Below the pieces are notes generated by a model. That model did no database searches. It was not told where the DNA came from and was given only the letters and a program-made list of their open reading frames with translations. DNA of 38,293 bases, taken from the NCBI GenBank assembly GCA_017997155.1, contig JAGOFO010000005.1:1-38293 (forward strand), written 5' to 3'. A program made the position numbers and the translations under genes. Source of the DNA: Myxococcota bacterium. Its GTDB lineage: Bacteria > Myxococcota_A > UBA9042 > DTJE01. Below are positions 4,778 through 35,375 of this stretch, piece after piece. Every line of letters starts with the position of its first letter. Positions within the stretch are counted from its first letter, which is position 1.

Positions 4778-4992
4778 AAAACGAAACCTGGGTTGGTTCC
4801 AGAGTGGTCCAAAAACGAAACCTGGGTTAGTTCCCGGAGGGGGTAAAAACGAAACCTGGGTTAGTTCCCGGAGGGGGTAAAAACGAAACCTGGGTTAGTT
4901 CCCGGAGGGGGTAAAAACGAAACCTGGGTTGGTTCCCGGAGGACCCCAAAGAGAAACCTGGGTTGGGGAAAGGGGTGGGGAAAAGTACTTTT
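4778..4992 (+). repeat. Array 1 of the GAAACCTGGGTT repeat: 6 direct copies at an exact 34-bp period, plus a G-rich tail
   Basis: Core copies start at 4783, 4817, 4851, 4885, 4919 and 4953. Units 4817-4918 are three identical 34-mers. The array lies in the gap between convergent genes. Confidence 0.95.
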
Positions 4993-5030
4993 GAAGTTCG
5001 GGTTAAGGTGTTTGAAATTACAGAGGTATG

Positions 5031-6218
5031 CTAGCGGGATGTTGCCTTGCGGAAGGCGCGTTCGAAGCCGGGTATGGCGCTGATGATCGTCTTGTCCGGA
5101 ACCGCGAAGGAAAGACGGAAATTGCCGGGAGCGTTGAAGCCCGATCCCGGGGTTGCCAGAACCAGTTCTTCCTTCAGCATCATGATGAAGGCGGGATCGT
5201 CCGGAATGGGAGACTTCGGAAACATGAAGAAGGTTCCCTGCGGTTTGGGCACGTCATAGCCGATCTCGGTCAGACCGTTGAACAGCAGGTCTCGCTTGGC
5301 CTGGTAGATCGGGACGTTCGACTCCCAGTCCTGAATTCTGGCCATCACCCGCTGCATCATGGCGGGAGCGTTGACGAACCCGAGCGTCCTGGTGCAGAAG
5401 GCAGCGGCCGCGAAGATCTCGCGGGCGCCGGCGCACCGGGGGCTGATCGCCAGGTATCCGATACGCTCGCCGGCGAGCGATATCGATTTTGAGTAAGACG
5501 TCACGATGACGGTGTCGTCGTAGTAGTCGGCCGGCGCCTCGTATTTCAGTCCGTCGAACAGCAGATTACGGTACGGTTCGTCTGAAACGATGAAGACCGG
5601 TCTGCCGATCTTGCGTGAGTGCTCAGTCAGCATCTCACCGATTTCCTTCAGGATTGTTCCAGGTATCATGCGTCCGGTCGGGTTACACGGCGAGTTGAGC
5701 ATCACCACGCGGGTTCGCGGTGTCAGGCGGCTTGCCATGTCCCGGACATCGGGCAGGCAGTCCGGAGTCGCCGGCGAAGTGACCTGCACGCCGTTGTGAT
5801 TCGAGATGTAGAACGAGTACTCGGGAAAGTACGGCGCCACCAGCATGACTTCGTCGCCGGGGTTCAGGACGCTGCGCAGGAAAACGTTTGACGCGCCCGC
5901 CGCTCCGACCGTCATCAGGATGTTCTCGGCTGGATAAGTCAGTCCGCCCTCGCGGGACAGCCTGGCCGCGATCGCGCGACGCGTCTCGATGTATCCGGGG
6001 TTCTGCATGTAGGTGTGCATTCCCGGAGTCTCGTCGGCTGCGACCTCCCGCAGCGCGTCGAAGAACTGCGGAGGAGGCTCGACGCAGGGACTTCCGAGTG
6101 TGAAGTCGAAAACCTTGTCGGCCCCGTGAATCTTTTTAAGCTCGAGCCCTTCCTCAAACATCCGCCTAATCCAAGAGCCGCGTTTTATATCCTGGCTGAC
6201 CTGATCCGACGTGTACAT
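5031..6218 (-). CDS. PLP-dependent class I/II aminotransferase (aspartate/alanine aminotransferase-like)
   Basis: The ORF contains SYSKS..LAGERIGY (PLP lysine region), NPCNPTG-like SPCNPTG and FRLSF motifs. The start was trimmed to ATG 6218 (MYTSDQVSQ...) because the upstream extension is Cys/Gly-rich and looks non-coding. Confidence 0.8.
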   Translation of the reverse strand: MYTSDQVSQDIKRGSWIRRMFEEGLELKKIHGADKVFDFTLGSPCVEPPPQFFDALREVAADETPGMHTYMQNPGYIETRRAIAARLSREGGLTYPAENILMTVGAAGASNVFLRSVLNPGDEVMLVAPYFPEYSFYISNHNGVQVTSPATPDCLPDVRDMASRLTPRTRVVMLNSPCNPTGRMIPGTILKEIGEMLTEHSRKIGRPVFIVSDEPYRNLLFDGLKYEAPADYYDDTVIVTSYSKSISLAGERIGYLAISPRCAGAREIFAAAAFCTRTLGFVNAPAMMQRVMARIQDWESNVPIYQAKRDLLFNGLTEIGYDVPKPQGTFFMFPKSPIPDDPAFIMMLKEELVLATPGSGFNAPGNFRLSFAVPDKTIISAIPGFERAFRKATSR

Positions 6219-6451
6219 CGAAGCACCTTCGTTTGATGACCAGCCGTTTGAATATCCCATCTGCCGGAAAGTCGCAACACCCCGGATCCGTCCACAGGCG
6301 CAGCCGGGCGAACACACGCTATTGACCGCGTGCCCTTATTGTTTCAAGCTAAAAGGTCATTGCACGGTGGCGCGATTCACGCAAAACGGTTTTTCGTGCG
6401 TGGCTGAATGTTCAGTCACGACTCCGCGGCCCCCGACAGGAGGAACAACCA

Positions 6452-8302
6452 ATGGATTACAAAGCCGATCTTCGGGACATCAAGTTCCTGCTTTTCGACG
6501 TTTTGAAAGCTGCCGACCTTCAGAAACTCGAGCATTACGCCGATTTCGGGGCCGACGACTACGAGGCCATTGTCGAGGCCGCGCATGACTTTGCCGCCGA
6601 GGTTCTCGGTCCGATCAATGATGTCGGAGACAAGGAAGGGCTCGGTTTCGGCCCCGATGGCGTGACGATGCCGACAGGCTTCGTTGAGGCTTGGAAGCGG
6701 TACGCCGCCGACGGCTGGGTTGGCGCGATAGTGCCCCAGGATGCCGGCGGCCAGGGTCTGCCGGTCCTGATGGATCAGGTTATTCACGAGCTGTTTCTGG
6801 GCGCCAACATCTCATTCTCGCTTCTTGGCGGACTGACCGAGGGCGTCATCGACCTGATCGACAAGTTCGGCGACCAGGCGCTGAAGGATCGTTTCATGTC
6901 CGGCCTGGTTGAAAAGGGCTGGGGCGGAACGATGTGCCTGACCGAGGACAACGCCGGTTCCGACGTCGGTGCAAGCCGCGCGGTCGCCCGTGACCGTGGT
7001 GACGGAACGTTCCTTATCGAGGGAACCAAGATTTTCATCACCGGCGGCGACCATGACATGTCCGAAAACATCGTGCACGCCGTTCTGGCAAGGATCGAGG
7101 GCGACGCTCCCGGCACGAAAGGCCTGTCGCTGTTCATCGTCCCGAAGTATTGCGTTGGACCCGACGGGCAGCTTGAACGCCCGCTGGCCACGAACGATGT
7201 CCGCTGCGCCCGTATCGAGCACAAGATGGGAATCAAGGCCTCGCCGACCTGCGTGTTGAATTTTGGCGACAACGGGGCCTGCGTCGGCTATCTCCTGGGC
7301 AATCGCTGCGCCGGCATGAAGCAGATGTTCCACATGATGAACGAGGCCCGCATCATGATTGGCGTGCAGTGCATGGCACTGGCCGCCATCGCGTACGAAA
7401 AGTCGCTTGAATACGCGGGTCAGCGTCTTCAAGGCACCGACATCGAGCACATGAAGGACCCGCGGGCCCCGAAAGTGCCGATCGTCACCCATCCGGACGT
7501 GCGTCGCATGCTGCTGACCCAGAAGGCGTACGTTGAGGCGATGCGCGGCATGCTCTACACGACCGCCATGTGGGAGGATCTCGCCCGCTACGCGTCGACC
7601 GACGAGGAAAAAGCGAAGTACCGCAGTTTTGTCGAGCTGATGACCCCGGTCTGCAAGTCCTGGTGCTCGGACATTGGATTCAAGTCGTGCGACCTCGGCA
7701 TGCAGGTCCTGGGTGGTTATGGCTACACCAGTGAGTACCCGCTGGAACAGTTCGTCCGCGACGCCAGGATCGGTCCCATTTATGAAGGGACCAACGGCAT
7801 CCAGGCGATGGATTTCGTGGGACGAAAGCTTCCCGCGAACAACATGGCCAACTTCTCTGCTTTCATCAAGGAAATCATAAACTTTGCCCAGGCAAACGCC
7901 GGCAACCGCGCCCTGGCCGACGGCTGCAACCGCCTGCGCGTCGCCGCCAACCAGGTTTCCGAGGCCGGTATGCGCCTGATGACAGCGGCCTTGAGGGACG
8001 TGCCCTTCCTGTTCTCACACGCGTACACCATGCAGGACGCCTTCGGCGAGGTTGTCGGGGGCTGGATGCTTCTGCAGCAGGCGGCGGTGGCATCAGCCCG
8101 CCTGGACGCGCTCTATGCGGAGAAGGGTGTGACGCTTGACACGGACAAGGCGGCGCTCGTGGCCGACAACCCGGATGCGAAGTTCTACTTCGGCAAGGTT
8201 AAGACCGCCGAATTCTATTGCAAAACCATTCTGCCGTTCGTAGCCGCCCGCCTCGAGATCATCAAGTCCGGCGACCACGCGGCGGTCGAGATGGTCTTCT
8301 AG
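6452..8302 (+). CDS. Long-type acyl-CoA dehydrogenase
   Basis: 616 aa. It has GGYGYTSEYPLEQFVRDARIGPIYEGTNGIQAMD (ACAD C-terminal signature), LTEDNAGSDV, and an extra C-terminal helical domain. GGAGGA lies upstream of the ATG. Confidence 0.85.
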   Translation: MDYKADLRDIKFLLFDVLKAADLQKLEHYADFGADDYEAIVEAAHDFAAEVLGPINDVGDKEGLGFGPDGVTMPTGFVEAWKRYAADGWVGAIVPQDAGGQGLPVLMDQVIHELFLGANISFSLLGGLTEGVIDLIDKFGDQALKDRFMSGLVEKGWGGTMCLTEDNAGSDVGASRAVARDRGDGTFLIEGTKIFITGGDHDMSENIVHAVLARIEGDAPGTKGLSLFIVPKYCVGPDGQLERPLATNDVRCARIEHKMGIKASPTCVLNFGDNGACVGYLLGNRCAGMKQMFHMMNEARIMIGVQCMALAAIAYEKSLEYAGQRLQGTDIEHMKDPRAPKVPIVTHPDVRRMLLTQKAYVEAMRGMLYTTAMWEDLARYASTDEEKAKYRSFVELMTPVCKSWCSDIGFKSCDLGMQVLGGYGYTSEYPLEQFVRDARIGPIYEGTNGIQAMDFVGRKLPANNMANFSAFIKEIINFAQANAGNRALADGCNRLRVAANQVSEAGMRLMTAALRDVPFLFSHAYTMQDAFGEVVGGWMLLQQAAVASARLDALYAEKGVTLDTDKAALVADNPDAKFYFGKVKTAEFYCKTILPFVAARLEIIKSGDHAAVEMVF

Positions 8303-8350
8303 GTTTCGTCCGTTTTCGCCCCCCCATGGTGGTCTTTTTCCGTCATTGGA

Positions 8351-8356
8351 TATAAT
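8351..8356 (+). promoter_or_regulatory. Candidate -10 hexamer (perfect TATAAT) upstream of the PhoH2 gene
   Basis: A perfect TATAAT lies in a GC-rich intergenic region, 35 nt upstream of ATG 8391. No convincing -35 element was found (GGTGGT at the expected position). Confidence 0.3.
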
Positions 8357-8390
8357 CTTGCGCCGGTTCGGTTTTCGACCAGGAGTGAGG

Positions 8391-9731
8391 ATGAAAAAGA
8401 ACTTCGTTCTTGACACAAACGTGCTGCTGCATGACCCGAACGCCTTGACCGGCTTCGCGGACAACAACGTTTGTGTGCCTATCTATGTCATTGAGGAGAT
8501 CGACAACTTCAAGAAGGAGTTGTCCGAGCTTGGCCGGAATGCCCGTCAGATTTCGCGGGATCTCGATGCGTTGCGGGCGCTCGGCAACATCGGAACCGGG
8601 GTTCAGACCGAGGCCGGCGGGTCGGTAAGGGTGCTGTTTTCGACTCGCAGTGACGTGTCCGAGGCGGAGATCGTCCACCGTGACGTGAACCTCAGCCATA
8701 TCATGGACCGTCTGATAATGGGCACCGCCATCGAGTTGAAGGCGGCCGAACCCGATATCCCCGTCGTCTTCGTAACCAAGGATACCAATCTCAGGATCCG
8801 GGCCGAGGCCGCTGGACTGGTCGCGGTCGATTACGACAAGCAGGGTAAGGACGTTACCGAGTTGTACACCGGGACCGGCGAAATGCTGCTGGGTCCCGAT
8901 CTGATCGGCGAACTGTTCCGCGTCGGCCATGTCGATGTTCCGGGTGGCCTGCCGGGCCTGTTTCACAACCAGTACCTCCTGGTCCGCAACGAGGCGAATC
9001 CCTCGCAGAGCGCCCTGGCCCGCGCCGCGACGCGCGAGGGCCGTCTGTACCGGACGGTCGAGGTTCGGGACTCCGTCTGGGGTATCAAACCGCGCAACAA
9101 GGAACAGCACTTCGCGTTCGACGCCCTTCTGCGCGACGACATCAGCCTTGTCACGCTGATAGGAAAGGCCGGTACCGGCAAGACGCTGCTGGCGATCGCG
9201 GCCGGGCTTCAGAAAGTCACCGAGGAAGAAACCTACACCAGGATGCTGGTGTCGCGCCCGATCTTCCCGCTTGGCCGGGACATCGGTTACCTGCCCGGAG
9301 ATGTCGAGGAGAAGCTGAATCCCTGGATGCAGCCGATCCATGACAACCTGGAGTTCCTGATGGGCCTCAGTCGCCAGGACCGCAAGACCTCGAACAGGTC
9401 CCCGCGCGAACTGATGGACATGAACATGATCAAGGTCGAGCCGCTGACGTACATCCGTGGTCGTTCGATCCCGAATCAGTACATGATTGTGGACGAGGCG
9501 CAGAATCTGACGCCGCACGAGGTCAAGACGATCCTGACGCGGGTAGGCGAGGGCACCAAGATCGTCCTTACGGGGGATCCCTACCAGATCGACAATCCTT
9601 ACGTGGATTCCGTCAACAACGGTCTGGCCTACATCGCCGAGAAGTTCAAGGATTCAGACATCGCCGCGACCGTGACCCTGATGAAGGGCGAGCGGTCCCG
9701 GCTGGCCGAACTGGCCGCAAATCTCCTTTAG
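8391..9731 (+). CDS. PhoH2-type protein (N-terminal PIN domain fused to PhoH-like ATPase)
   Basis: FVLDTNVLLHDP marks the PIN start. Walker A is [50 protein letters not shown] is the PhoH signature. AGGAGTGAGG precedes ATG 8391. Confidence 0.85.
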   Translation: MKKNFVLDTNVLLHDPNALTGFADNNVCVPIYVIEEIDNFKKELSELGRNARQISRDLDALRALGNIGTGVQTEAGGSVRVLFSTRSDVSEAEIVHRDVNLSHIMDRLIMGTAIELKAAEPDIPVVFVTKDTNLRIRAEAAGLVAVDYDKQGKDVTELYTGTGEMLLGPDLIGELFRVGHVDVPGGLPGLFHNQYLLVRNEANPSQSALARAATREGRLYRTVEVRDSVWGIKPRNKEQHFAFDALLRDDISLVTLIGKAGTGKTLLAIAAGLQKVTEEETYTRMLVSRPIFPLGRDIGYLPGDVEEKLNPWMQPIHDNLEFLMGLSRQDRKTSNRSPRELMDMNMIKVEPLTYIRGRSIPNQYMIVDEAQNLTPHEVKTILTRVGEGTKIVLTGDPYQIDNPYVDSVNNGLAYIAEKFKDSDIAATVTLMKGERSRLAELAANLL

Positions 9732-10482: not shown

Positions 10483-12768
10483 TTGAAACAGAATCTGAAG
10501 ACGATCCTTGTCTGGGTGCTGCTGGTCGGAGTGTTTTTTGCGATCGTGAAGACCGTTGATCGCAAGCCTGCCTCGACCGACATCAAATTCTCGGACTTCA
10601 TCGTGCTGGCGCTGGGTTCTGACAGCAAGTCCGACCAGACGGAAGTGCCCGCCGGGCATGCCTCCATCAAGGCGACCACTATCGAGGCAGCCCCGGTTGA
10701 GGGACAGGGTTCCGTAAGGGCGAATGATATTCGCCCTTCTGGGCAGGGTCAGGGTCAGGCGCAGGGACAGGGACAGGCTGGCGACGGCGCGAATGTCGCT
10801 CCTTCTCCTGAACCCGGAAAAGAACCGGCCCCGGTGCCCGCACCCGTGCCCGCACCCGTGCCTGCCGCTGAACCAGTCCCCGCACCCGTCCCGGCCCCCG
10901 TCCCGGCCCCCGTCCCGGCCACTGCACCCGCTCCCGCCCCTGTACCGGCACCGGCCCCTGCCGCCCCCGCGGCCAGTGTGGTCAAGGCTCCTCTGGGAGC
11001 GGCCGTGACTCCAGGCGCCGACTCAGCGTCCGAGCCCATGTTCAAGGTCGTGTCGATCGTCGTGACGGGCCGCAGGATCGAGGGAAAGTTTGCCGACGGC
11101 AAGGAATTCAAGACGTTTGGTGATATCACCGCGTATCAGAAGGACCTTGTCGCCGAGGGAATCGAGGTCACCTACAAGGACGAAACCGGCGGCATCTGGA
11201 CGGCACTGCTTACGTCCTGGCTGCCGATGATCTTCTTCCTCGCCATCTTCATCTTCTTCATGCGCCAGTCCTCGCAGGGTGGCGGCGGAAAGCTCTTCCA
11301 GTTCGGCAAGAGCAAGGCACGCCTGACCAACGAGGGCCAGACCACGGTTACTTTCAAGGACGTGGCCGGCATCCAGGAAGCCCAGGTTGAACTCTCCGAG
11401 ATCGTTGAATTTTTGAAGTCCCCGGATTCCTTCACGAAGCTTGGCGGCCGCATTCCGCGCGGCGTGCTCCTGATGGGACCTCCGGGCACCGGCAAGACGC
11501 TTCTCGCCAAGGCTGTGGCTGGTGAGGCCGGCGTACCTTTCTTCTCGATCTCCGGCTCGGATTTCGTCGAGATGTTCGTCGGCGTTGGCGCTTCCCGTGT
11601 CCGCGACCTTTTCGAACAGGGCAAGCGCAAGGCGCCGTGCATCATTTTTATCGACGAGATCGACGCGGTCGGTCGTCAGCGCGGCACCGGTCTTGGTGGC
11701 GGCCACGACGAGCGCGAACAGACACTGAACCAGCTTCTGGTGGAGATGGACGGCTTCGAGGCCAATTCGGGGGTCATCATCGTGGCGGCCACGAACCGTC
11801 CCGATGTTCTGGATCCCGCTCTGCTGCGTCCCGGCCGTTTTGACCGCCGCGTTGTGGTTTCCAGCCCGGACATAGCGGGCCGCGAGGCGATTCTGAAGGT
11901 GCACACGCGCAAGGTCCCGCTGTCCGGCGACGTGGATCTGGGCGTCGTGGCCCGCGGCACACCCGGCTTCGTGGGCGCGGACCTTGCCAACATCGTCAAC
12001 GAGGCGGCCCTGCTTGCCGCGCGCCGTGGAAGCGACAAAGTCTGCATGGTCGACTTTGACGAGGCCAAGGACAAGGTGATGATGGGCACCGCCCGCAAGA
12101 GTTTCGTGATGGGCGAGGAAGAGAAGAGACTGACCGCCTATCACGAGGCCGGCCACGCTATCGTCGCCAAGTCGGTCCCGGGCGCCGATCCCCTGCACAA
12201 GGTCACGATCATTCCGCGCGGCATGGCACTGGGCATGACCCAGCAGCTTCCGCTTGAGGACAGGCACACCGCGTCGCGCCGGTATCTGGTCGACAGGCTC
12301 GCGATCCTCATGGGTGGCCGCGCGGCCGAGAAGGTCGTGTTCGAGGACATCACGACCGGCGCCGGTCAGGACATCAAGGTCGCCTCGGACATCGCCAGGA
12401 AGATGGTCGCTCAGTGGGGCATGTCCGTTCTTGGTCCGGTTCATCTGGATCAGAACGAGGAAATGGTCTTCCTGGGGCGCGAGCTGTCGCATCAACGGGC
12501 GGTCAGCGAGCAGACCGCGATGCGCGTGGACCAGGAGATTTCCAAGCTGGTCACCGAGGCTCACGAGACCGCGCTCCGGATACTGACAGAGCGCAGGTCA
12601 GCGCTTGAGGCGCTTGCCAGCGCGCTGCTGGAACGTGAAACGCTGGATGGCTGGGAAGTGGACCGGCTGATCGTCGATTGCGGATTCGAGCCGGCGACGC
12701 TCAGCCACACGCCCCGGGTAGCGACGCCTCAGGAAGGCGGGTCCCCCCGACGGTACCGCGTCGGTTGA
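10483..12768 (+). CDS. ftsH: ATP-dependent zinc metalloprotease FtsH with an expanded periplasmic region
   Basis: Walker A is [23 protein letters not shown]. It also has [11 protein letters not shown], the second region of homology, and the HEAGHAIV zinc site. The start is TTG. There are two TM helices, at about residues 7-22 and 238-260. Confidence 0.95.
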
Positions 12769-12957: not shown

Positions 12958-12986
12958 TTGACTGAAGTCCGTTCATGGGCTACGTT
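12958..12986 (+). promoter_or_regulatory. Candidate sigma-70-type promoter for the bactofilin cluster
   Basis: TTGACT (12958-12963), a 17-bp spacer, then TACGTT (12981-12986), about 38 nt upstream of ATG 13024. This is a pattern match only. Confidence 0.25.
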
Positions 12987-13023
12987 TCCTCGTCATGTTT
13001 TGGCAATCATACCGGGGTGTCAG

Positions 13024-13371
13024 ATGAGCGATGAATTCGGTGCCGTGATTGGCAGGAATATTGTTGTCCGGGGCGAGATCGAGGGTTCCGAGGTCCTTCT
13101 GGTCGAAGGTCGCGTCGAGGGAACGGTCAATCTCGAGTCCGAACTGGTGGTCGGTGTTTCAGGCCATGTCGAGGCCGACGTCAACGCCCAGGCGCTGACG
13201 ATCGAGGGCGAGTTCAGCGGCACGGCCGCCTGCAGCGATATCGTGACCCTGGTCAACGGCTGTCACGGCACCGGCGAACTGAAGGCGCCTCGCGTCGTGA
13301 TCGAGGAAGGCGCCGTGTTCACCGGCAGGTTGAACATGGAGACCGGCGTCCGCGAAAGCCGGGGGGAGTGA
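13024..13371 (+). CDS. Bactofilin
   Basis: Repetitive beta-helix pattern (VVRGEIEGSEVLLVEGRVEGTV...VSGHVEADV...IEGEFSGT...IEEGAVFTGRL) typical of the bactofilin/DUF583 fold. The start was trimmed to ATG 13024. Confidence 0.75.
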   Translation: MSDEFGAVIGRNIVVRGEIEGSEVLLVEGRVEGTVNLESELVVGVSGHVEADVNAQALTIEGEFSGTAACSDIVTLVNGCHGTGELKAPRVVIEEGAVFTGRLNMETGVRESRGE

Positions 13372-13374
13372 TTC

Positions 13375-13698
13375 ATGTCGGAAACAACGGTTGGCACCAA
13401 GACCCGGATTAACGGCAGGATCAGCGGCACGGACCGCCTTTGCGTGCACGGTCTGGTCGAGGGTGAGGTCGCCATGGAAGGCGACCTGGTGGTCGAGGCG
13501 GACGGCAGGGTCGAGGCGACCGTCTCCGCGCGCGCCGTCAACATCCGCGGCACTGTGAACGGCGAGGTCACCGGACGCGACAAGGTCGAGATCGCTCCAG
13601 ACGGTCGGATGATCGGCGACGTCAGGACCGGCAGGATCCTGATTTCGGACGGTGCGGTTTTCAAGGGGCGCGTCGAGATGGACGTCAGGGAGGGCTGA
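13375..13698 (+). CDS. Bactofilin
   Basis: 107 aa. It has INGRISGTDRLCVHGLVEGEV...GDLVVEADGRVEATV...IRGTVNGEV...ISDGAVFKGRVEM. GGGGGAG precedes the ATG, which lies 3 nt after the previous stop. Confidence 0.8.
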   Translation: MSETTVGTKTRINGRISGTDRLCVHGLVEGEVAMEGDLVVEADGRVEATVSARAVNIRGTVNGEVTGRDKVEIAPDGRMIGDVRTGRILISDGAVFKGRVEMDVREG

Positions 13699-13701
13699 TC
13701 G

Positions 13702-14289
13702 ATGGCAGATAACAAAAGAACCGAGATCGGGCCGGACACGCTTGTCGTCGGCAATATCGACGCCCAGGAAGACGTTTCCATCCACGGCAGGGTGGACGGG
13801 ACGATCCGCTCGACGGCCACCGTCATCATCGAGGACGACGGCGAGGTGGACGGCGAGATCGAGGCTTTGTCGGTCGTGGTCGCGGGCGTTTTGATCGGCA
13901 ATATCCGCGCGACATCGAAGGTCGATGTCGAGGAGACCGGCGTGGTTCAGGGCGACATCGCGACACCGGTGATGGTGCTTGTTGATGGCGGCGCCGTTGC
14001 CGGAATGCTGGTGATGGACGACTCGAACCCGCAGCCCGTAAAGGTTAACACCGCCGGCGGCACGACCTATCGCCCCCAGGCGACAAGGCAGACCGGTTCG
14101 ACCAGGCCGACCGCCTCCAGGACCGCGGCAAGGCCTTCAGCCTCCGCGACCAGAACAGCCCCGACTTCCCGTGGCGCCACGTCGGGCACCCGCGCCCGCA
14201 CGGTTGAGACGCCGCGCACCGCCAGGCAGCCCCGCAGCGCAGCTCCGCTTATCGATGACGTGGAAGGCCCGGTTGAGTCCGAGTCTTGA
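13702..14289 (+). CDS. Bactofilin with a long Arg/Thr/Ala/Pro-rich disordered C-terminal tail
   Basis: A bactofilin core (VVGNIDAQEDVSIHGRVDGTI...VAGVLIGNI...VVQGDI) is followed by about 80 aa of low complexity (TRQTGSTRPTASRTAARPSASATRTAPTSRG...). GGGAGGG precedes the ATG. Confidence 0.8.
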   Translation: MADNKRTEIGPDTLVVGNIDAQEDVSIHGRVDGTIRSTATVIIEDDGEVDGEIEALSVVVAGVLIGNIRATSKVDVEETGVVQGDIATPVMVLVDGGAVAGMLVMDDSNPQPVKVNTAGGTTYRPQATRQTGSTRPTASRTAARPSASATRTAPTSRGATSGTRARTVETPRTARQPRSAAPLIDDVEGPVESES

Positions 14290-16972: not shown

Positions 16973-17755
16973 ATGGATCAGGCAAGACAGGCGATCGAAC
17001 GCGAGGTCAAGCTGACCGTTGATGGCGCCGCGGATTACCTCGCGATGGCGTCGGCTCTGCCGGTTCCCAGGCGTTGGGGGCTGCAGTTGAACGTGTATCT
17101 CGACACGTTGTCGAGGCGTCTGCGTTCGAATCGGATTTCACTCAGGATCCGGGTCACGCCGGACTTCGCGCTCTTGACGTTGAAGACGCCTGCCCGGTCG
17201 GCGGACAGCGGCGACGGGGTGTTCTGCAATCTTGAGACCGAGGTTCCTTTTGACAGGGAGATGGCGGTCGAGTGGATCAACGCCCCGGAAAGGGCCGCTC
17301 CGGCGTCGTTGGCCGGTTTTGAAGCACTTGCCACGGTGATTGCCGATGAACCTCTGGTGGTGATCGGCTGGTCCATGACCAGGCGGGCCGTTTGCGATAC
17401 TGCCTGGGGCGTGACTCTCGAACTTGACGAGACGGTGTTTCCGGACGGCACCCGTGACTTCGAGATTGAGGCCGAGCACGAGGACGCGGCGCTGGCGCGT
17501 CGGGTTATCGATCTGCACGCGGATCGGGTGGGGCTTAGACTTGGCGCGCAGACCAGATCGAAGCACGCCCGGGCGATGGAGCGCCTGGGAAGCGTCCGCT
17601 GGGTGCTGCCTTCCGGAAGCCCCGAGGCGCCGCATCCTCCGTTGTTTCCATCGGCGGCCCCGGCAGGGGCATTCGGGCTGGTCAAGGTCGGCGCGGCTGG
17701 TACGGTGATCGACAGTACGGAGAGGGGCAGTGGGGGGAAAGCAGGCTCGAACTGA
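16973..17755 (+). CDS. CYTH-domain protein (CyaB/thiamine-triphosphatase-like triphosphate tunnel enzyme)
   Basis: The N-terminal IEREVKL matches the CYTH ExExK signature, with further acidic/basic strands (SLRIR, ETEVPF, FEIEAEHE). ATG 16973 is preferred over TTG 16958. Confidence 0.6.
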   Translation: MDQARQAIEREVKLTVDGAADYLAMASALPVPRRWGLQLNVYLDTLSRRLRSNRISLRIRVTPDFALLTLKTPARSADSGDGVFCNLETEVPFDREMAVEWINAPERAAPASLAGFEALATVIADEPLVVIGWSMTRRAVCDTAWGVTLELDETVFPDGTRDFEIEAEHEDAALARRVIDLHADRVGLRLGAQTRSKHARAMERLGSVRWVLPSGSPEAPHPPLFPSAAPAGAFGLVKVGAAGTVIDSTERGSGGKAGSN

Positions 17756-19709
17756 TCTGGCCGATGTCGGCGACGCGCGGACAGGTTTTTCGCCCGCGCC
17801 CGGGGTCCAGGCGGCCCCCGGCATCGCCGCGGTGTTCCTGGTCACCCTGGTTTTCTATCTGCTCTGGTTGCCCGGGACCGCTTACTGGCTGGATTCGCCG
17901 GAGTTCATGACAGCGGCGGCCTCGCTGGGGCTGGCTCATCCACCGGGACACCCCGTGGTCGCGGTTCTGATGAAACTGGCGTCGCTGCTGCCGCTTGGCG
18001 ACGTGCCGTTCAGACTTAACCTGGTGGGCGCGATTCTGGGCGCGGTTGCCGCCGGTTTGACCGGTGGTATCGCATGCGTCGTCGCGCAGCGGGTTCTTCA
18101 CCGTCTGAACAGGGACGGCAACACGGGCCGTTTGCGTCACGCATCGACCCTTGTCGGAGTGGCAGGCGGGCTGCTTTACGGCCTGGGCGCTTCCTCGATG
18201 ATCCAGGCGATGGCGGCCGAGGTCTACACCCTTAACGCGGCCCTGGTGCTTGGCGCGGTCTATCTGTTGATTTCCAGTCCCGACGGCGCCGACGCGCGTC
18301 GCACGCTGGCTGCCGCTGTTCTGATGGGCCTGGCCTTTGCCAACCATCACCTCCTGGGTCTTCTTGCCGGTCCGGCCGTGCTCGTGGCGGCTTTCCGGTC
18401 CCGGCGGGACACCCGGACGGTTATCGTCGCGGCCATGACAGCGTGCCTGGTGGCGGTGTGCTGCTATCTTTATCTGTGGGTGCGTTCGGCCGCCGGAGCC
18501 TGGCCCACCTGGTCTCCCGTGCGCGACCCTGCCGGCTTTTTCTGGTATGTGTCAGCGTCCATTTTTTCGCAGTCGCTCGGGGGCTTCGAGCAGTCGGGTG
18601 GTGGCATCGGCCAGAACCTTGCGTTGGCGTCGGTTGTCGCGGCCGGTTCCCTGGGCGTGGCCGGCGTTGTCCTGTCGCTCGGGGGCGCCTGGCTGGGCGC
18701 GCGTTCCGGAGCGGCCCGCGAGATCGTGGTCTTACTGCTGCTCGCGGCCGGGGGCTTTGGTTCAAAGGTCATGATGGGGATCCTCGACCCCTCGAATCCG
18801 GACGACCACGGTTACTTTTTGACAGCGCTGGCTGCGACCGCGGTTCTGGCCGCGTCGTTTTTCTGCCTTCCGATGGCAGCCGGAGGGGGCAGGGCGGGCC
18901 GGGTCGTGCGCGGCATTGCCTCGGCCCTGCTTGCCGCGATGGTCGTGGCGGTCATCCCCGCCAGCGTCGACGTTGGACGCGACAGATCACATTTTGACCA
19001 CACGCGGCGGGTTTCCAGACTGGTCTGGAGCGATGTCCCCAGCGGCTCGGTCGTGCTGGTGTCGCACTACCCGGTGTTCTTCCTGATGCAGTACCAGCAG
19101 ATGGTCGAGGGTGTGCGGCCGGATGTTTCGCTTGTCCAGCAGAGTCTATACTACAAGGCGCGCGGCGGCCAGTGGTACGCCCGTGAGATGAAGGCCCGGC
19201 ATGCCGACCTTTCCGGCCTGATGGACGCCTTCCAGGCAACCTCGCAGGTTTCCTGGCCGGCCCTTGAAGCGCTTGCCTCCCGCAGACCGGTTCTTCTTGA
19301 CCCGTCTCCAGACTTCGCCGCCCCCCTCGACCGCGTCTCCTTCGCGGGCTGGTTCTTTTCCGTCTCCCCCAGTCCTGCCGCACCCCCCAACCCAACCCAG
19401 GTTTCTTTTTCGGGCCCCGGAAACGCTCCCGGAAAAACAACCCAGGTTTCTTTTTCGGGGGGTGAACCGGCTGTGGAAAGGGGGGTAGACGCGCATCTGC
19501 TGTCCTTCGATCGCGTGCTTGGCCGGGCGCCGATGTCCAATGTCGAGACCAGGAGGGTGGTGACCCGTAATCTGGTTTCCGCGGGTGACTGGCTTCAGGG
19601 CGCAGGATACGACGCAGCCGCCATTGAGCTGTTTTCCCGTGCCGCGTATTACAATCCCGAGGATCGTTCGATTCGTGGACGCCTCGGAGATGTGGCGGGA
19701 GACAGATGA
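17730..19709 (+). CDS. Polytopic membrane protein of the DUF2723 / GT-C (PMT-like glycosyltransferase) type with a C-terminal soluble TPR-like region
   Basis: YWLDSPEFMTAAASLGLAHPPGHP is the characteristic first-loop motif of DUF2723/TMEM260-like GT-C proteins. More than 8 hydrophobic helices follow. The start codon is uncertain (GTG 17730 overlaps the CYTH gene). The stop overlaps the next ATG (ATGA). Confidence 0.65.
   Translation: MGGKQARTDLADVGDARTGFSPAPGVQAAPGIAAVFLVTLVFYLLWLPGTAYWLDSPEFMTAAASLGLAHPPGHPVVAVLMKLASLLPLGDVPFRLNLVGAILGAVAAGLTGGIACVVAQRVLHRLNRDGNTGRLRHASTLVGVAGGLLYGLGASSMIQAMAAEVYTLNAALVLGAVYLLISSPDGADARRTLAAAVLMGLAFANHHLLGLLAGPAVLVAAFRSRRDTRTVIVAAMTACLVAVCCYLYLWVRSAAGAWPTWSPVRDPAGFFWYVSASIFSQSLGGFEQSGGGIGQNLALASVVAAGSLGVAGVVLSLGGAWLGARSGAAREIVVLLLLAAGGFGSKVMMGILDPSNPDDHGYFLTALAATAVLAASFFCLPMAAGGGRAGRVVRGIASALLAAMVVAVIPASVDVGRDRSHFDHTRRVSRLVWSDVPSGSVVLVSHYPVFFLMQYQQMVEGVRPDVSLVQQSLYYKARGGQWYAREMKARHADLSGLMDAFQATSQVSWPALEALASRRPVLLDPSPDFAAPLDRVSFAGWFFSVSPSPAAPPNPTQVSFSGPGNAPGKTTQVSFSGGEPAVERGVDAHLLSFDRVLGRAPMSNVETRRVVTRNLVSAGDWLQGAGYDAAAIELFSRAAYYNPEDRSIRGRLGDVAGDR
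19394..19450 (-). repeat. Array 2 of the GAAACCTGGGTT repeat: 2 copies 45 bp apart, embedded in frame in a CDS
   Basis: AACCCAGGTTTC occurs at 19394-19405 and 19439-19450. Both copies sit in the longer repeat CAACCCAGGTTTCTTTTTCGGG. They translate to TQVSFSG twice in the 17730..19709 ORF. Confidence 0.9.
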
Positions 19710-27802: not shown

Positions 27803-28003
27803 AACCCAGGTTTCCATTTCTACCCAACCCAGGTTTCGATTTTGGCCCTCTCTGCCCAACCCAGGTTTCCATTTCCGGCACCTTGAACCCAACCCAGGTT
27901 TCCAATATTTGCCAGTCCAGACCCAACCCAGGTTTCCAATATTTGCCAATCCAGACCCAACCCAGGTTTCCATTTCTGGCGCCTTGAACCCAACCCAGGT
28001 TTC
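27803..28003 (-). repeat. Array 3 of the GAAACCTGGGTT repeat: 7 direct copies (minus-strand orientation)
   Basis: AACCCAGGTTTC starts at 27803, 27826, 27858, 27891, 27925, 27959 and 27992. The array lies in the divergent intergenic region between the DsbA-like gene and a kinase gene. Confidence 0.95.
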
Positions 28004-28136: not shown

Positions 28137-29936
28137 GTGAAAGGCGTCGAGGGCGAGATCGTCGGCGGACGGTACGTGATTGGACGTCAAGTCGGTTCCG
28201 GCGGTTTTGGAACAGTCTTTCTGGGACGTCAGATCAATCTCGACCGCGAGGTCGCCATCAAGGTGATGCGACGGGGTCCAGAGGAACCGGCAGTCGCTCG
28301 CGAACGCTTCAGGCGCGAGGCCATTCTCAGCAGTGGTTTGAGTCATCCGAACATCGTTACCTGTCACGACTTCCTCGTCGACGATGATGACGATCTGATC
28401 CTGGTGATGGAATACCTGCGTGGCGTCACGATGGACAGGATTCTGGCGGCGTCTGGTCGGATGGAGCCAGGCAGGGTGGCGGATCTCGTCGCAGGAGTCG
28501 CAGCAGGCCTTGGCGAGTGCCACCGCTGCGGGATTGTTCACAGGGACATTAAGCCGTCGAACATCTTCATTATCGATGAGGGGACAACCAGAGAGAGGGC
28601 GAAGATCATCGACTTCGGCATTCTGTGGGCCATGCCGGACTTTGACGGGGGCCTTCCCGAATTGACTAGGGCCAACGCCTTCATCGGGACTCCCGAGTAT
28701 GTCGCTCCCGAGGTCCTTTTCGGTGCTCTTCCCGACGGAGGAACCGATCAGTACGCGCTCGCCTTGGTCGTGCTGCGAGCAGTGACTGGTCAGCTCCCAT
28801 TCCCAGACTCCAAAGGCGCGGCGCTGTTGAAGAGGTTGACAGATCGGCCGCCTTTGCTGGATCACGAGGTCATGCGGGCGTGGCCGACCGTTCGTGGCGT
28901 GTTGTTCAAGGCATTGTCTCCGGATCCGGGGGATCGTTTTGAAGACATCGACCAGTTCGGTTCGGCCCTTGCCGATGCAGCCGATGTTGGCAGACGAGCA
29001 GCGCAGGCAGGTTCGGTCACGACCGAAACCGTGGTTGAACTGAATCACCCCGGGCTTCCGTGCGATAGTTCATCAGCCTTTGTCCGCGCGTCGAACAACG
29101 CGATCGTTGAGGACAATGGCGAGGCTGCGGATATCTCATCCCAGGTTGAAGCTATTTCATCCCAGGTTGAAGCTGACGGAACCAGACCATCTGCGGGTCA
29201 CCGCATCAAGTGGCTTGCATTGCTGTTCGCCCTCGTGGCTGTTGGCTTTGGAACTGGCGTTGTCTACCTTGTGGTGTCTGACGCCGGAGCTCGGACCGTA
29301 TCGGCGCCTGCGGGCCATCCTGTGGTGGCAGCCGTTGCTCCTGACCCGTCGGAAGCCGAGGAAGACACGACTCCTCCTGTTTCGTCTGCGTTGCCTCGGA
29401 TGGCTGCCCCCGAAACAACTCCCGAAGCACTTGCGCCGTCGCCGGTCCTGGCGTCGGAGCCCCCTGTGGACAAAACCACTTCAGAGTCCGTTTCAAAGGC
29501 CGCGCGCACTGTAAAGACAGAACCAGTGGCCGAGCGTCCACGGACAAACAGGCCGGAGGTCTCCCGAAAGCCTTCCACCCGTTCGCCTTCCAGCATGAAC
29601 GCGGGGTCTGGAGATACCTCGACAGTCAAGCGCCCCTCGCCAGATCCATTGCCAGCGGTTGAACCGGTCCAGATCTCCCAAGCGATCCCTGCACCTGCGC
29701 CTGCGGTTCCGACTGAGGTTGCACCGTCTGAGGAGACGGCCCTGATAATCAATGCGGAACCCTTTGGCCAGGTTACTTATGATGGGCGCCGGATGGGACA
29801 GACTCCAGTAGTAATTGAAAGCCCCAAGCCGGGCCAGCATACGGTCGAGGTCGTCAGCGCATCGAACGTCACTATCAGAAGGGTGGTGACTGTCGAAGAG
29901 GGAAAAAGAAAGGTGGAGTTCTTCAGCCTGGACTGA
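28137..29936 (+). CDS. Hanks-type Ser/Thr protein kinase with TM helix, Pro-rich linker and C-terminal PEGA-like domain
   Basis: GSGGFGTVFLG, VAIKVM, HRDIKPSNI, DFG and TPEYVAPE motifs. The TM helix is WLALLFALVAVGFGTGVVYLVV. The C-terminal INAEPFGQVTYDGRRMGQTPVVIESPKPGQHTVEV resembles a PEGA domain. The GTG start is preceded by GGAGG. Confidence 0.9.
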   Translation: MKGVEGEIVGGRYVIGRQVGSGGFGTVFLGRQINLDREVAIKVMRRGPEEPAVARERFRREAILSSGLSHPNIVTCHDFLVDDDDDLILVMEYLRGVTMDRILAASGRMEPGRVADLVAGVAAGLGECHRCGIVHRDIKPSNIFIIDEGTTRERAKIIDFGILWAMPDFDGGLPELTRANAFIGTPEYVAPEVLFGALPDGGTDQYALALVVLRAVTGQLPFPDSKGAALLKRLTDRPPLLDHEVMRAWPTVRGVLFKALSPDPGDRFEDIDQFGSALADAADVGRRAAQAGSVTTETVVELNHPGLPCDSSSAFVRASNNAIVEDNGEAADISSQVEAISSQVEADGTRPSAGHRIKWLALLFALVAVGFGTGVVYLVVSDAGARTVSAPAGHPVVAAVAPDPSEAEEDTTPPVSSALPRMAAPETTPEALAPSPVLASEPPVDKTTSESVSKAARTVKTEPVAERPRTNRPEVSRKPSTRSPSSMNAGSGDTSTVKRPSPDPLPAVEPVQISQAIPAPAPAVPTEVAPSEETALIINAEPFGQVTYDGRRMGQTPVVIESPKPGQHTVEVVSASNVTIRRVVTVEEGKRKVEFFSLD

Positions 29937-30956: not shown

Positions 30957-31142
30957 AAAACGAAACCTGGGTTCGAAATTCCGGTGCCTGAAACGGACCC
31001 AGAAACGAAACCTGGGTTCGACAAAAACGAAACCTGGGTTCGAAATTCCGGTGCCTGAAACGGACCCAAAAACGACCGGAAAAAGAAACCTGGGTTCGAG
31101 TTTTTTGACCTGTATATGTGCCTGAAAAAGGAAACCTGGGTT
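30957..31142 (+). repeat. Array 4 of the GAAACCTGGGTT repeat: 5 direct copies
   Basis: Copies start at 30962, 31007, 31029, 31085 and 31131. The 45-nt block 30957-31001 is repeated exactly at 31024-31068. Confidence 0.95.
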
Positions 31143-31173: not shown

Positions 31174-31719
31174 ATGGGCGGCGAAAAAACGGGTGGCTAT
31201 CGTCTCGGGGCGGATATCGAGATTTACTGTCGATACTGCAGGCTGAACCTTGACGGAGTTGTATCCGCGCTCGACGGCGAAGGCAACCTGGCCAAGGTCA
31301 AGTGCGGGACCTGCGGCCATTTCCAGGATTTCAAACCACCCGTGGACATGGAAGAGAAGCACCGGAAACTGGTGGCAAAAGCGATGCGTATCGCCGAGAG
31401 ACACACCCGGGGTCCGGATGCCGCCCGCGCATCGTCGACCAAGTCCGGTAAGGGCACTCGCGGGTCAGCTGGCTCGCCCGAGGCGGAGTTGACGCAGGAG
31501 GCCGTCATGAGGCGGCTCTGGGACGAGGCGACCGCCGATGTTTCACCGATGAAAGCCAAGGTCTACGACAAATTCCGTTCGTATCACAAAGACGATGTGA
31601 TTTCTCACAAGGCCCACGGCCTTGGTGTTGTTGTTCGCGATGATGTTGAAGGGTCGATGACTGTTCTGTTCAGAGACTCTGTGCTGGAACTCGAGCACAA
31701 CGCCCCCCGCGAAGACTGA
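31174..31719 (+). CDS. Zinc-ribbon protein with a basic linker and a small C-terminal beta domain, function unknown
   Basis: CRYC...CGTCG zinc ribbon. The C-terminal KDDVISHKAHGLGVVV loosely resembles the GD.V.H..HG.G motif of CarD/TRCF-type Tudor-like domains. ATG 31174 is preferred because the GTG/TTG at 31141 lies inside the repeat. Confidence 0.55.
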   Translation: MGGEKTGGYRLGADIEIYCRYCRLNLDGVVSALDGEGNLAKVKCGTCGHFQDFKPPVDMEEKHRKLVAKAMRIAERHTRGPDAARASSTKSGKGTRGSAGSPEAELTQEAVMRRLWDEATADVSPMKAKVYDKFRSYHKDDVISHKAHGLGVVVRDDVEGSMTVLFRDSVLELEHNAPRED

Positions 31720-31753
31720 AGGTTCGTCGGCTCACCTAAATGTTCCCGGTCGC

Positions 31754-33742
<1,989 letters not shown>

Positions 33743-33785
33743 GGCTTCCTTTCACATCGGCCCAAACCGTTAGTCGTCGGGATTC

Positions 33786-35015
33786 CTACCTGATGCCGTG
33801 CTTGCGCTCGAGATACTCGTAGTAATCAATGACCGATCTGACGTACTGCCGCTTCTGACTGTACGAACCATGGTAGAAGCTGCGTTTGAAGCCGTAAACG
33901 ATGATGTCCTTCAGTTCAGCGGGGCCGATATTGAAGGTCTCGACGGCGAGTTGGATCTCGCGCGTGACGGTTGTATTCGAGACCAGTCGGTTGTCGGTAC
34001 AGAGTGTTGTCGACAGGCGCAGATCGAGCATCTTGCCGAACGCGTGATCCTTGAGAGTTTTGATTTCAGGGTTCGTCTGCATGTTCGAGGTCAGGCAGAC
34101 TTCGATCGTTATTCGGCGGTCGGCGATGTACTCGGACAGTCGGCGAACGTAGTCGACCGGGTCCGCGATGGCGCGCGATGTGATCTTGCTGGGACTGAGC
34201 AGGTAGTAGCCGTGTCCAAGGCGGTCTGCGTGCAGATCGGTGATCGCCTGGAAGATCGACTCGGGTCCGTAGGCCTCGCCCGCATGAACGGTTTTCTTCA
34301 AAAAGTTCTTGTGGCAGAAGTCGTAGGCATCCTTGTGCTCGCCAGCCGGAAAGCCGGCCTCGGCCCCGGCCAGGTCAAAACCCGTGATCGGGATACCCTG
34401 TCTGTCACGTATCTGGACCGCCGCGCGTGCCATTTCCAGCGAGGTCATCGAGCCGACGGCATGGTCAGGCGAGTATGCGTGAACGCGGAACATGTCTTTG
34501 AAGTAGGGAGACAGGACCGGCATGGCGTTGCGCATCGCGCACACGATGATCCCGTAGTGTCCGTCCGGGCCACGTTCCGGTTCCGGGATTTCGCGAAGAC
34601 GCGCGTTGAAGTCGGCCGTGGCGGCGGCCAGACCACGGTTTACCGCGCAAAGCACGTCATTGACCGGGAAATCGGCTGTGATGTGAAGTTGAGGGGCGAA
34701 GCGTACCTCGAAGTATCGAACGCCTTCTTTGAAGTTGTCTTCAGCGAGCTCGTACGCAATCCGTTCGATCTGTTCGGCATTCGTCATGACGGCTGTCGTC
34801 AATGAGAAACCTTGCAAATACTCGACCAGGCTGGCGTACTTGTCCTTGAAAACGAGCTCGCGCAGACCATCCTCGGTGTATGAGGGAAGCTGGACGCCGG
34901 CTTCCCGGGCCAGTTCGATCAATGTTGGGATTCGCAGCGAGCCGTCCAGGTGGACGTGAAGGTCGGTTTTGGGAATTTCTTTGATAAATTCGGACGTTAT
35001 AGGCGTCATTGTCAT
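33786..35015 (-). CDS. Adenosine/AMP deaminase family metallohydrolase
   Basis: DLHVHLDGSLR (HxH metal site), VHAGE and CTDN-type motifs. At 409 aa it is longer than the classical Add. GGGAGA precedes the ATG. Confidence 0.8.
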   Translation of the reverse strand: MTMTPITSEFIKEIPKTDLHVHLDGSLRIPTLIELAREAGVQLPSYTEDGLRELVFKDKYASLVEYLQGFSLTTAVMTNAEQIERIAYELAEDNFKEGVRYFEVRFAPQLHITADFPVNDVLCAVNRGLAAATADFNARLREIPEPERGPDGHYGIIVCAMRNAMPVLSPYFKDMFRVHAYSPDHAVGSMTSLEMARAAVQIRDRQGIPITGFDLAGAEAGFPAGEHKDAYDFCHKNFLKKTVHAGEAYGPESIFQAITDLHADRLGHGYYLLSPSKITSRAIADPVDYVRRLSEYIADRRITIEVCLTSNMQTNPEIKTLKDHAFGKMLDLRLSTTLCTDNRLVSNTTVTREIQLAVETFNIGPAELKDIIVYGFKRSFYHGSYSQKRQYVRSVIDYYEYLERKHGIR

Positions 35016-35159
35016 GTCTCCCTGATCCCCCCTTGGGGACCGCTTGTGTTTTCAAACCGTCAGGTCATCAAAGATAAGGCTTTGTACTGGTTTTGTCGAT
35101 TCGAAGCGATGGAACGCGACCCGGCGGGTTCGAAACCCGGGTATACTGCCTGTGGAACA

Positions 35160-35375
35160 GAAACCTGGGTTGTGTTTTTAGGTCCCTGAATTCGGACGAA
35201 AACAGAAACCTGGGTTGGCAAAAATCGAAACCTGGGTTGGCCAAGAATCGAAACCTGGGTTGGCCAGAAATCGAAACCTGGGTTGGCTCCATGACGGCCA
35301 GAAATTGAAACCTGGGTTGGTCAGAAATCGAAACCTGGGTTGGCTCCATGACGGCCAGAAATTGAAACCTGGGTT
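35160..35375 (+). repeat. Array 5 of the GAAACCTGGGTT repeat: 8 direct copies
   Basis: Copies start at 35160, 35205, 35227, 35250, 35273, 35307, 35330 and 35364. The 55-nt block 35265-35319 is repeated at 35322-35376. Confidence 0.95.

Follow-up and report, generated by a model that had tools for sequence, protein, structure and literature searches.

A lineage-restricted 12-bp word in direct arrays with helical spacing on the chromosome of uncultured Anaeromyxobacteraceae

Analysis of a 38,293-nucleotide stretch of chromosome from a Myxococcota bacterium (contig JAGOFO010000005.1 of GCA_017997155.1), referred to here as the window, revealed a 12-bp word, GAAACCTGGGTT, that recurs unchanged in five clusters of direct repeats and is confined to one species complex of uncultured Anaeromyxobacteraceae (89–99% identical DNA). 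The reading that we prefer, which we hold tentatively and place just short of probable, is that the word is a young, lineage-specific site that would be read on double-stranded DNA by a sequence-specific protein, bound head-to-tail along one face of the helix, and that it was seeded along the chromosome, multiplied by tandem duplication and kept exact by selection or drive. We infer the reader protein, its oligomerization and its role from the geometry and conservation of the word.

An exact-match scan of the window found 28 copies of the word, 19 on the plus strand and 9 on the minus strand, in five clusters that each have a single orientation, exactly as the original prediction made from this DNA had described them, and the word occurred in none of 100 dinucleotide-preserving shuffles of the window (0 expected). 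The set is all-or-none: in addition to the 28 exact copies, a mismatch scan found no copy with one mismatch and five with two (2.9 expected by chance). Tandem Repeats Finder assigned each array its own unit (34/68 bp for array 1, 23/34/101 bp for array 3 and 23/34/57 bp for array 5), in agreement with the earlier claim that each array has its own spacer family, and also reported higher-order duplication periods within arrays. The core consists of 4-bp complementary arms around TG and, as had been noted and as the sequence itself shows, can be read through in all six frames without meeting a stop codon. Since the same arrays are present in independent NCBI, JGI and ENA assemblies, the feature is not an assembly artefact.

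A logo of 110 distinct copies showed that conservation extends beyond the core, with positions −10 to −7 rich in C, positions −6 to −2 reading RAAAW (A in 76–89% of copies at −5 to −3), and, on the 3′ side, G or C at +12 and G in 87% of copies at +13. The extended motif is a C-rich segment, RAAAW, one base, GAAACCTGGGTT and then S-G, about 20–24 bp overall, and the minimal unit is 22–23 bp, for example GAAACCTGGGTTGGGTGAAAAAG. Core-to-core distances, compiled from 67 distinct spacers in 47 families, clustered at 22–23, 33–34, 45–46, 56–57 and 66–68 bp. A periodogram of these distances peaked at 11.3–11.4 bp, with R = 0.79 for the 67 spacers and 0.76 for the 47 families, compared to a maximum of 0.45 among 2000 random sets. 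Odd multiples (34 and 56–57 bp) were common, so the pattern is not simply the loss of alternate cores from a 23-bp array, and spacers unrelated in sequence shared length classes, indicating that length itself is constrained. This constraint points to helical phase, and hence to a reader of double-stranded DNA, since phasing is expected for binding to double-stranded DNA and not to RNA.

Comparison with close relatives showed that the cores are old enough to have been kept through divergence of the surrounding DNA. The only species-representative genome with the same arrays was a metagenome-assembled genome (MAG), CAZNJW01, which is labelled uncultured Anaeromyxobacteraceae and matches the window in gene order, at about 90% identity; a JGI metagenome contig was 99% identical to the window. 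All five arrays were found at orthologous positions in the MAG, and in the three that could be aligned cleanly the cores were identical at 121 of 121 positions, compared to 133 of 179 (74%) in the spacers and 464 of 546 (85%) in the flanks, which bears out the prediction that the core is held constant while spacers differ. Because the cores were kept in two lineages while the intervening DNA diverged, their perfection is not just the result of recent duplication.

Copy number was less stable than position. Array 2 has two copies at the same place in both genomes, whereas the window and the MAG differ at array 1 (six vs at least eight, the latter split over two contig ends), array 3 (seven vs four), array 4 (five vs four) and array 5 (eight vs two exact copies with a 37-bp period plus one one-mismatch copy); even a strain 99.3% identical to the window has five copies in array 1 where the window has six. 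Thus, of the two outcomes for which a comparison between strains had been proposed, synteny and variability, both were found, and these differences, together with the higher-order periods, agree with the proposed growth of arrays by local duplication. The MAG assembly is broken within the array 1 orthologue, with cores at the ends of CAZNJW010000017.1 (L005) and CAZNJW010000109.1 (L012). Arrays probably fragment short-read assemblies, and the copy numbers of the longest arrays may therefore be underestimated.

Further metagenome contigs also carry arrays and, as they are 89–99% identical where they overlap, belong to one species complex. Across this ingroup sample, about 110 kb of largely non-redundant sequence, we counted 110 distinct exact copies and 14 one-mismatch copies. 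Loci occur about every 4.6 kb and cores about every 1.3 kb on these contigs, densities that are biased upward because the contigs were found through their arrays. One pair of orthologous arrays, L074 14–262 and L008 6150–6330, from genomes 94% identical to each other, has eight cores each but wholly different spacing (27/27/44/22/27/44/46 bp and 23/22/23/23/22/23/33 bp, respectively); the 27-bp spacings of the L074 array are off the helical phase. The interior of this array has turned over very fast while its cores stayed fixed.

The word was absent from the loci compared in more distant relatives, outside the species complex. Homologues of Lon and of a protein with a TAtT domain led to five largely syntenic loci (L092–L096; about 90 kb in total) from four more distant relatives, with L092 and L095 both from one outgroup MAG, GCA_964470365.1. 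Their Lon sequences were 72–82% identical to that of the window (L092–L094) and their TAtT sequences 73–76% identical to the ingroup orthologue (L095 and L096). These 90 kb contained no copy of the word with up to one mismatch, nor did 10-mer counts reveal an alternative over-represented word in the same DNA. The arrays are therefore gains within the ingroup. For example, the spacer between YjbQ and the downstream gene, in which array 4 lies, is about 20 bp in two outgroups and 278 bp in the window, and the spacer between the kinase and DsbA-like genes, the site of array 3, is 192 bp without a core in an outgroup and 437 bp in the window.

Some copies were gained within genes. The original prediction had dismissed the open reading frames (ORFs) that run over the repeats as spurious, which is not so for array 2: it lies in frame in a publicly called gene for a 659-amino-acid TMEM260-like protein, and the segment that it encodes (PTQVSFSG...TTQVSFSG) is a 21–28-amino-acid insertion relative to three outgroup orthologues. 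Elsewhere in the species complex, the linker of a lipoprotein has SDLTQVSDS repeats encoded by three cores at 57-bp intervals, a linker ahead of a glycoside-hydrolase domain contains NPGF encoded by two cores with the same 57-bp spacing, two cores 33 bp apart encode PRKFEPRF in what is probably the n-region of a signal peptide, and a MutS2-like protein has one sense-strand core in an 18-amino-acid loop insertion directly before its Walker A motif. All periods in coding regions (45, 57, 57 and 33 bp) are divisible by three; the intergenic periods are not so constrained.

A single core in a conserved TAtT domain, in contrast, was gained without any insertion or deletion. The outgroups read GAC CCG GAA TAC TTT TAC GGT GGC (DPEYFYGG) where the ingroup reads AAC CCA GGT TTC TTT TTC GGG GGG (NPGFFFGG); on the opposite strand the ingroup sequence is CCCCCCGAAAAAGAAACCTGGGTT, which is the extended motif in full. 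A proto-site matching at 15 of 24 positions was thereby brought to 24 of 24 by conservative amino-acid changes, which argues that selection or drive pushes sequence to the exact word. Together with the lineage-specific burst and the insertions into genes, as judged by these sequence comparisons, this perfected proto-site indicates that the word spreads.

Analysis of orientation revealed no relation to transcription or GC skew. Few copies are single; most lie in arrays of two to eight, and every array is strictly direct. Arrays were found in spacers between convergent genes (array 1 and at least five others), between divergent genes (arrays 3 and 5) and between co-directional genes, either in sense (array 4 and L032-3437) or antisense (L015 and L032-9638), and six of the seven independent sites in coding sequence were antisense. 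Orientation relative to GC skew was 12:8, showing no bias. Word orientation is tied to neither transcription nor GC skew. The GC-skew ratio led us to reject a replication-oriented word of the Chi, KOPS or Ter type. In a scan for σ70-type promoters the sites were not enriched, and terminator-like sites were only marginally above shuffles (13 vs 7.7 ± 2.9). A role as promoter or upstream activator was rejected given the lack of σ70 enrichment and the frequency of arrays between convergent genes, and a resemblance by eye to σ54 −24/−12 promoters was rejected since the −12 GC is not matched. A G-quadruplex was rejected as not universal, as a second GGG 3′ of the core is possible in only about 40–46% of the copies in the logo. 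A global-regulator or silencing role, one of the functions originally put forward, is unlikely, because arrays are as frequent between convergent gene ends and within genes as they are in upstream positions, and transcription does not govern the way they point.

The arrays and their contexts are listed in Table 1. Context classes were assigned with our own codon-usage gene caller, which agreed with the public calls for the contig that corresponds to the window (JAHZTK010002799.1 of GCA_020047475.1).

Table 1. Positions of the word arrays and of one two-mismatch copy in the window, with their genomic context.
Feature	Coordinates	Strand	Copies and spacing	Context
Array 1	4783..4964	+	Six exact cores, 34-bp period	Convergent spacer; weak PilZ-like ORF (~4390-4725, +) on one side, 3′ end of an aminotransferase gene (5031-6317, −) on the other
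Array 2	19394..19450	−	Two exact cores, 45 bp (15 codons) apart	Antisense, in frame, within a TMEM260-like gene (17730-19709, +); encodes ...PTQVSFSG...TTQVSFSG...
Array 3	27803..28003	−	Seven exact cores; spacings 23, 32, 33, 34, 34, 33 bp	Divergent spacer between a DsbA-like gene (−) and a Ser/Thr kinase-PEGA gene (+); directed at the DsbA-like gene
Array 4	30962..31142	+	Five exact cores; spacings 45, 22, 56, 46 bp	Sense, between co-directional YjbQ/UPF0047 and a 192-aa ORF; final core 32 nt 5′ of ATG
Array 5	35160..35375	+	Eight exact cores; spacings 45, 22, 23, 23, 34, 23, 34 bp	Divergent spacer between an adenosine deaminase gene (−) and a DJ-1/PfpI gene (+); final core 34 nt 5′ of ATG
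Two-mismatch copy GAAACCCGGGTA	35132..35143	+		Directly upstream of array 5, within small hairpin-like GGGTTCGAAACCC

The region 5′ of array 5 (35095–35150) contains a small T-arm-like hairpin, GGGTTCGAAACCC, followed by TATACT, and is nearly unchanged in the MAG that is about 90% identical, with two substitutions, one of them in the hairpin-like part. It could be a promoter, in which case all of array 5 would lie in the 5′ untranslated region (UTR) of the DJ-1/PfpI gene; alternatively, it could be a palindrome related to the word that has since decayed.

How could such arrays work as protein-binding sites? Because the site is asymmetric, one protomer would bind each word. Words that point the same way at whole multiples of about 11.3 bp would place the bound protomers on one face of a (underwound) helix, where they could contact each other head-to-tail, and the phased A-tracts would add intrinsic curvature. 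Head-to-tail geometry on one helix face is familiar from iteron-binding Rep proteins, OmpR/PhoB- and LytTR-type regulators, ribbon-helix-helix proteins and BldC/Xis-type proteins. The chromosome would then carry small nucleoprotein 'pads' along its length, several hundred to a few thousand of them. The density and dispersal of the arrays and their indifference to gene orientation favor a role in nucleoid structuring or DNA marking over gene-specific regulation. New sites may arise by two routes, the perfection of an existing near-match, as seen for one coding copy, or the insertion of a short piece of DNA, after which arrays would expand and contract by tandem duplication and deletion within limits set by helical phase or, in genes, by reading frame. 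The evidence does not separate host-level selection from drive, whether by biased uptake, templated conversion or element-encoded copying.

Several observations weigh against this reading. The proposal that the arrays are clustered sites for a DNA-binding protein, with which the original prediction had also led, was strengthened by the quantized spacing of about 11.3 bp and by the conserved A-tract 5′ and GG 3′ of the core, but no candidate for the binding protein emerged, and neither the window nor the related loci offer a lead to one. About 9% of the spacings (19, 21, 27, 29 and 37 bp) are off phase, and the 11.3-bp period exceeds the 10.5 bp of relaxed B-DNA. Twelve invariant base pairs in more than 100 copies are unusual, as sites of nucleoid proteins and regulators are ordinarily degenerate. 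In addition, sites in coding sequence change amino acids in the conserved TAtT domain or insert residues in the MutS2 loop, lipoprotein linkers and a signal peptide; a binding site of benefit to the host has no obvious need of such positions, which fit better with drive or a selfish process.

A further proposal, which we regard as improbable, is that the word is not only read but also written by templated copying. A patch of about 24 bp would be converted or inserted from an RNA or single-stranded DNA template, for example by a retron- or reverse-transcriptase-derived mechanism or by oligonucleotide annealing, and the product would be read by the same or a partner protein. Within a single young lineage, such a process would by itself have installed phased protein landing pads between genes, at operon junctions and in those parts of proteins that tolerate them. 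It would jointly explain why the word is all-or-none perfect, why a 15/24 match became 24/24 without insertion or deletion, why other sites are net insertions and why cores have stayed perfect in genomes that differ by about 10%.

Other explanations were also weighed. One, which we consider unlikely, is that the word belongs to a selfish, self-propagating interspersed repeat, a new analogue of REPINs, miniature inverted-repeat transposable elements (MITEs) or Rickettsia palindromic elements, in which an element-encoded or domesticated transposase, recombinase or reverse transcriptase would recognize the word and copy or insert a unit of about 23–34 bp that slippage amplifies; cores would stay perfect since intact cores alone would serve as substrates for copying and array turnover. 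A new self-propagating repeat family had been the second option of the original prediction, and it too drew support from lineage-specific gains, some of them within genes: the word appeared in one lineage, with about one copy for every 1.3 kb of retrieved ingroup loci compared to no copy (up to one mismatch) in the outgroup DNA, arrays are net insertions (the outgroup spacer of about 20 bp vs 278 bp in the window), in-frame insertions into coding linkers and loops recall those of Rickettsia palindromic elements, and turnover is fast between genomes 94–99% identical. The helical phasing, however, is left unexplained by a selfish repeat, as is the coding copy that arose without insertion or deletion, and the repeats lack terminal inverted repeats, a stable hairpin and a recognizable target-site duplication, with no transposase or reverse transcriptase gene in the window. 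A purely selfish model also predicts the decay of old copies, yet the five arrays predate the split between the species of the window and of the MAG and have kept every aligned core base. A second explanation is a DNA uptake signal like the DUS of Neisseria or the USS of Pasteurellaceae, in which a competence receptor would prefer the word, biased uptake and homologous recombination would drive its density, and tandem duplication would be an easy route to more copies. Lineage-specific density and substitution at tolerant coding positions are textbook population-genetic hallmarks of DUS and USS, and in Haemophilus influenzae the USS has helically phased AT tracts beside its core. The invariant 12-bp core with an A-rich flank, the density of the word (about one copy every 1.3 kb among the loci retrieved), the lack of orientation bias relative to genes or GC skew, the coding copies at tolerant positions, one of them perfected from 15/24 to 24/24 by conservative amino-acid changes, and the presence of the word in one narrow clade with sister lineages lacking it would all fit. 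Nevertheless, we judge an uptake signal to be less likely still than a selfish repeat, as known uptake sequences are single copies or inverted pairs and not direct arrays of up to eight with quantized spacing, the cloud of near-misses is small (14 one-mismatch vs 110 exact copies, where DUS and USS have a larger one-mismatch share), and competence is not established in this uncultured lineage.

An element that acts at the RNA level, with arrays transcribed in 5′ or 3′ UTRs or operon spacers as repeated sites for an RNA-binding protein or as hairpins, is very improbable, even though array 4 lies in sense within an apparent operon, arrays 4 and 5 end 32–34 nt before start codons, and arrays 3, 4 and 5 are directed at the downstream gene. 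Precedent exists in Beggiatoaceae and Cyanobacteria, where arrays of the TAACTGA heptamer precede start codons (PMC4679880). As RNA, AACCUGGGUU is self-complementary through two G-U pairs, on this strand only, and because core can thus pair with core, helices are predicted between neighboring cores; the folding energies of three arrays were, however, no better than those of shuffles (z-scores of −1.7, +1.0 and −1.4), and an Rfam scan at gathering thresholds matched only a tRNA-Arg gene. (A relation of the word to this tRNA-Arg, which lies in the window, was ruled out by ARAGORN.) Orientation is not tied to transcription, with two arrays in co-directional spacers and six of seven coding sites antisense; convergent gene ends flank many of the arrays, and nothing about RNA would account for spacing with an 11.3-bp period. 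The probability that the landing-pad, selfish-repeat, uptake and RNA readings leave over goes to explanations that we have not considered.

The window itself is ordinary chromosome of about 60% G+C. It encodes an aminotransferase, an acyl-CoA dehydrogenase, PhoH/PIN, an FtsH-like protease, three bactofilins, Ser/Thr kinases, FHA and TMEM260-like proteins, a XerD-like recombinase, Lon, a DsbA-like protein, UvrB, adenosine deaminase, DJ-1, an NtrC-type activator and tRNA-Arg. As had been stated, the window contains no transposase, cas gene or terminal inverted repeat. Three successive bactofilin genes (12958–14289) are followed by genes for a phosphoribosyltransferase, an FHA/zinc-ribbon protein, a Ser/Thr kinase and a CYTH protein, and this block, from bactofilin to CYTH, is kept in all outgroups fetched. 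GC-rich tandem repeats of 12, 18, 24 and 30 bp (for example, GTCCCGGCCCCC) at 10743–10961 fall within the N-terminal part of the gene for the FtsH-like AAA/M41 protease (10483–12768), with a weak Pfam match to proline-rich PARP-type repeats, and are probably a low-complexity linker. Inside the Ser/Thr kinase-PEGA gene, a 21-bp unit, TATCTCATCCCAGGTTGAAGC, occurs twice (29132–29174) and contains CCCAGGTT, which partly matches the word in reverse complement. The strongly negative AT skew (−0.38) at 18001–19000, in the TMEM260-like membrane-protein gene, is probably due to hydrophobic, Leu/Val/Ala-rich coding sequence.

If a protein reads the arrays, they would constitute a rare natural, chromosome-wide set of phased and perfectly specified landing pads, recent enough for their birth to be reconstructed from sister genomes with and without the word that are already available. 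They would also offer an experimental handle on nucleoid organization or DNA marking in a phylum in which little is known beyond ParB and CdbA. Should the word prove to be an uptake signal or a selfish element, it would represent a new architectural type, direct arrays with a helical period, and would illustrate how words enter genes, whether as in-frame additions to linkers, loops and signal peptides or through conservative substitutions. Finally, the arrays are ready-made variable-number tandem repeat (VNTR) markers for strain tracking, as genes of this organism recur in many public metagenome samples.

Comparison of the word with published sequences and databases agreed with the original view that it is not part of a described repeat family. 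In addition to the Rfam result, blastn of array 5 against plasmid and phage collections gave no match in either, a full-text literature search for the 12-mer and its reverse complement returned only eukaryotic papers with a chance string, and the literature on myxobacterial interspersed repeats and on iteron-like genome-wide repeats held nothing equivalent. Matches in a scan of viral contigs were rejected as unrelated (giant-virus repeats and single chance matches in two other contigs), as were matches outside the clade among genomes and metagenomes, which were tandem repeats of 41–42 bp, probably coding, or giant-virus repeats. A number of very low-GC (18–28%) lake-metagenome contigs contain intergenic tandem repeats of 36 or 43 bp around a near-palindrome, GGAAACCYRGGTTTCC, that includes the same 12-mer (L051 87–470, L038 9480–9720, L090 (GVMAG-M-3300023184-64), L035, L062, L081 and L083). 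Two of them are labelled giant-virus MAGs, and in L051 a motif like AAAATTGA lies near the repeats. The GGAAACCYRGGTTTCC repeats look like an unrelated family that has the string in common by chance.

Each known system that we compared shares some properties of the arrays. The closest in geometry are the Rep-binding iterons of F, P1, RK2, R6K and pSC101, which are likewise asymmetric direct repeats in one orientation, phased at about 22 bp or multiples of about 11 bp, and which each bind one protomer, with the sites on one helix face, as the spacing here suggests. The original contrast with plasmid iterons was thus overstated with regard to the spacing rule, which is iteron-like, but stands with regard to dispersal: iterons are found at one or two loci by a rep gene or origin, whereas the arrays occur every 4–5 kb or so along the chromosome and also in genes, with five in 38 kb of housekeeping chromosome that has no rep gene and further arrays on every related contig. 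Partition centromeres (parS, parC and tubC) differ in the same way, as their arrays lie beside a parA/parR/parB-type operon and the arrays here are dispersed and without flanking partition genes. The 12-bp DUS of Neisseria and the USS share with the word lineage specificity, an invariant core of 9–12 bp, an AT-rich flank, a density of about one per kb on both strands and coding copies acquired by substitution; they are not organized as phased direct-repeat arrays, however, occurring as single copies or inverted pairs that often serve as terminators.

Among interspersed repeats, the mycobacterial MIRU-VNTR loci and boxB of the pneumococcal BOX element are also dispersed tandem-repeat loci, often in operons, whose copy number varies among close relatives, as it does here (8 vs 2, 7 vs 4, 5 vs 4, and 6 vs 5 at 99.3% identity). 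In those families the whole unit of 40–100 bp (45–100 bp for MIRU and boxB) is conserved between loci, whereas here only the 12-mer and about eight flanking positions are common and the spacer is locus-specific. REP, BIME and REPIN sequences, which are mobilized by RAYT, are similarly high-copy, lineage-specific and frequent between convergent genes, but they are imperfect 20–40-nt stem-loop palindromes with a GTAG or CGTC tag that form inverted or alternating clusters and are only extragenic, none of which holds for these strictly direct arrays with copies in coding sequence; the window has no RAYT (Y1 transposase) gene. Rickettsia palindromic elements also lie in frame in protein-coding genes, where they add tolerated peptide segments, but are palindromic, 100–150 bp long and without 12-mer arrays. 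CRISPR arrays have repeats of 23–47 bp, unique spacers of similar length, a leader and cas genes, in contrast to a conserved unit of 12 bp with periods of 22–57 bp, spacers that recur within an array and no cas domains in the window. Cyanobacteria and Beggiatoaceae have TAACTGA heptamer/STRR arrays, numerous sets of a short direct repeat that are scattered between genes and occasionally lie in ORFs (PMC4679880), in which contiguous heptamers lie mostly just upstream of start codons, unlike the spaced 12-mers with a helical period described here.

A precedent within the phylum for a protein landing pad is CdbA of Myxococcus xanthus, a ribbon-helix-helix nucleoid-associated protein that bends DNA at more than 500 sites, each a direct repeat with halves one helical turn apart (PMC7156744). 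Its sites share with the arrays their phylum, a direct-repeat architecture and a distribution over hundreds of chromosomal positions, both intergenic and genic (PMC7156744). The CdbA motif, which we compared with the word by architecture only, is 18 bp long, GC-rich and degenerate (PMC7156744), and CdbA is not restricted to the species complex to which the word is confined. In sum, the word is an interspersed repeat or genomic word outside all of the named families with which it was compared.

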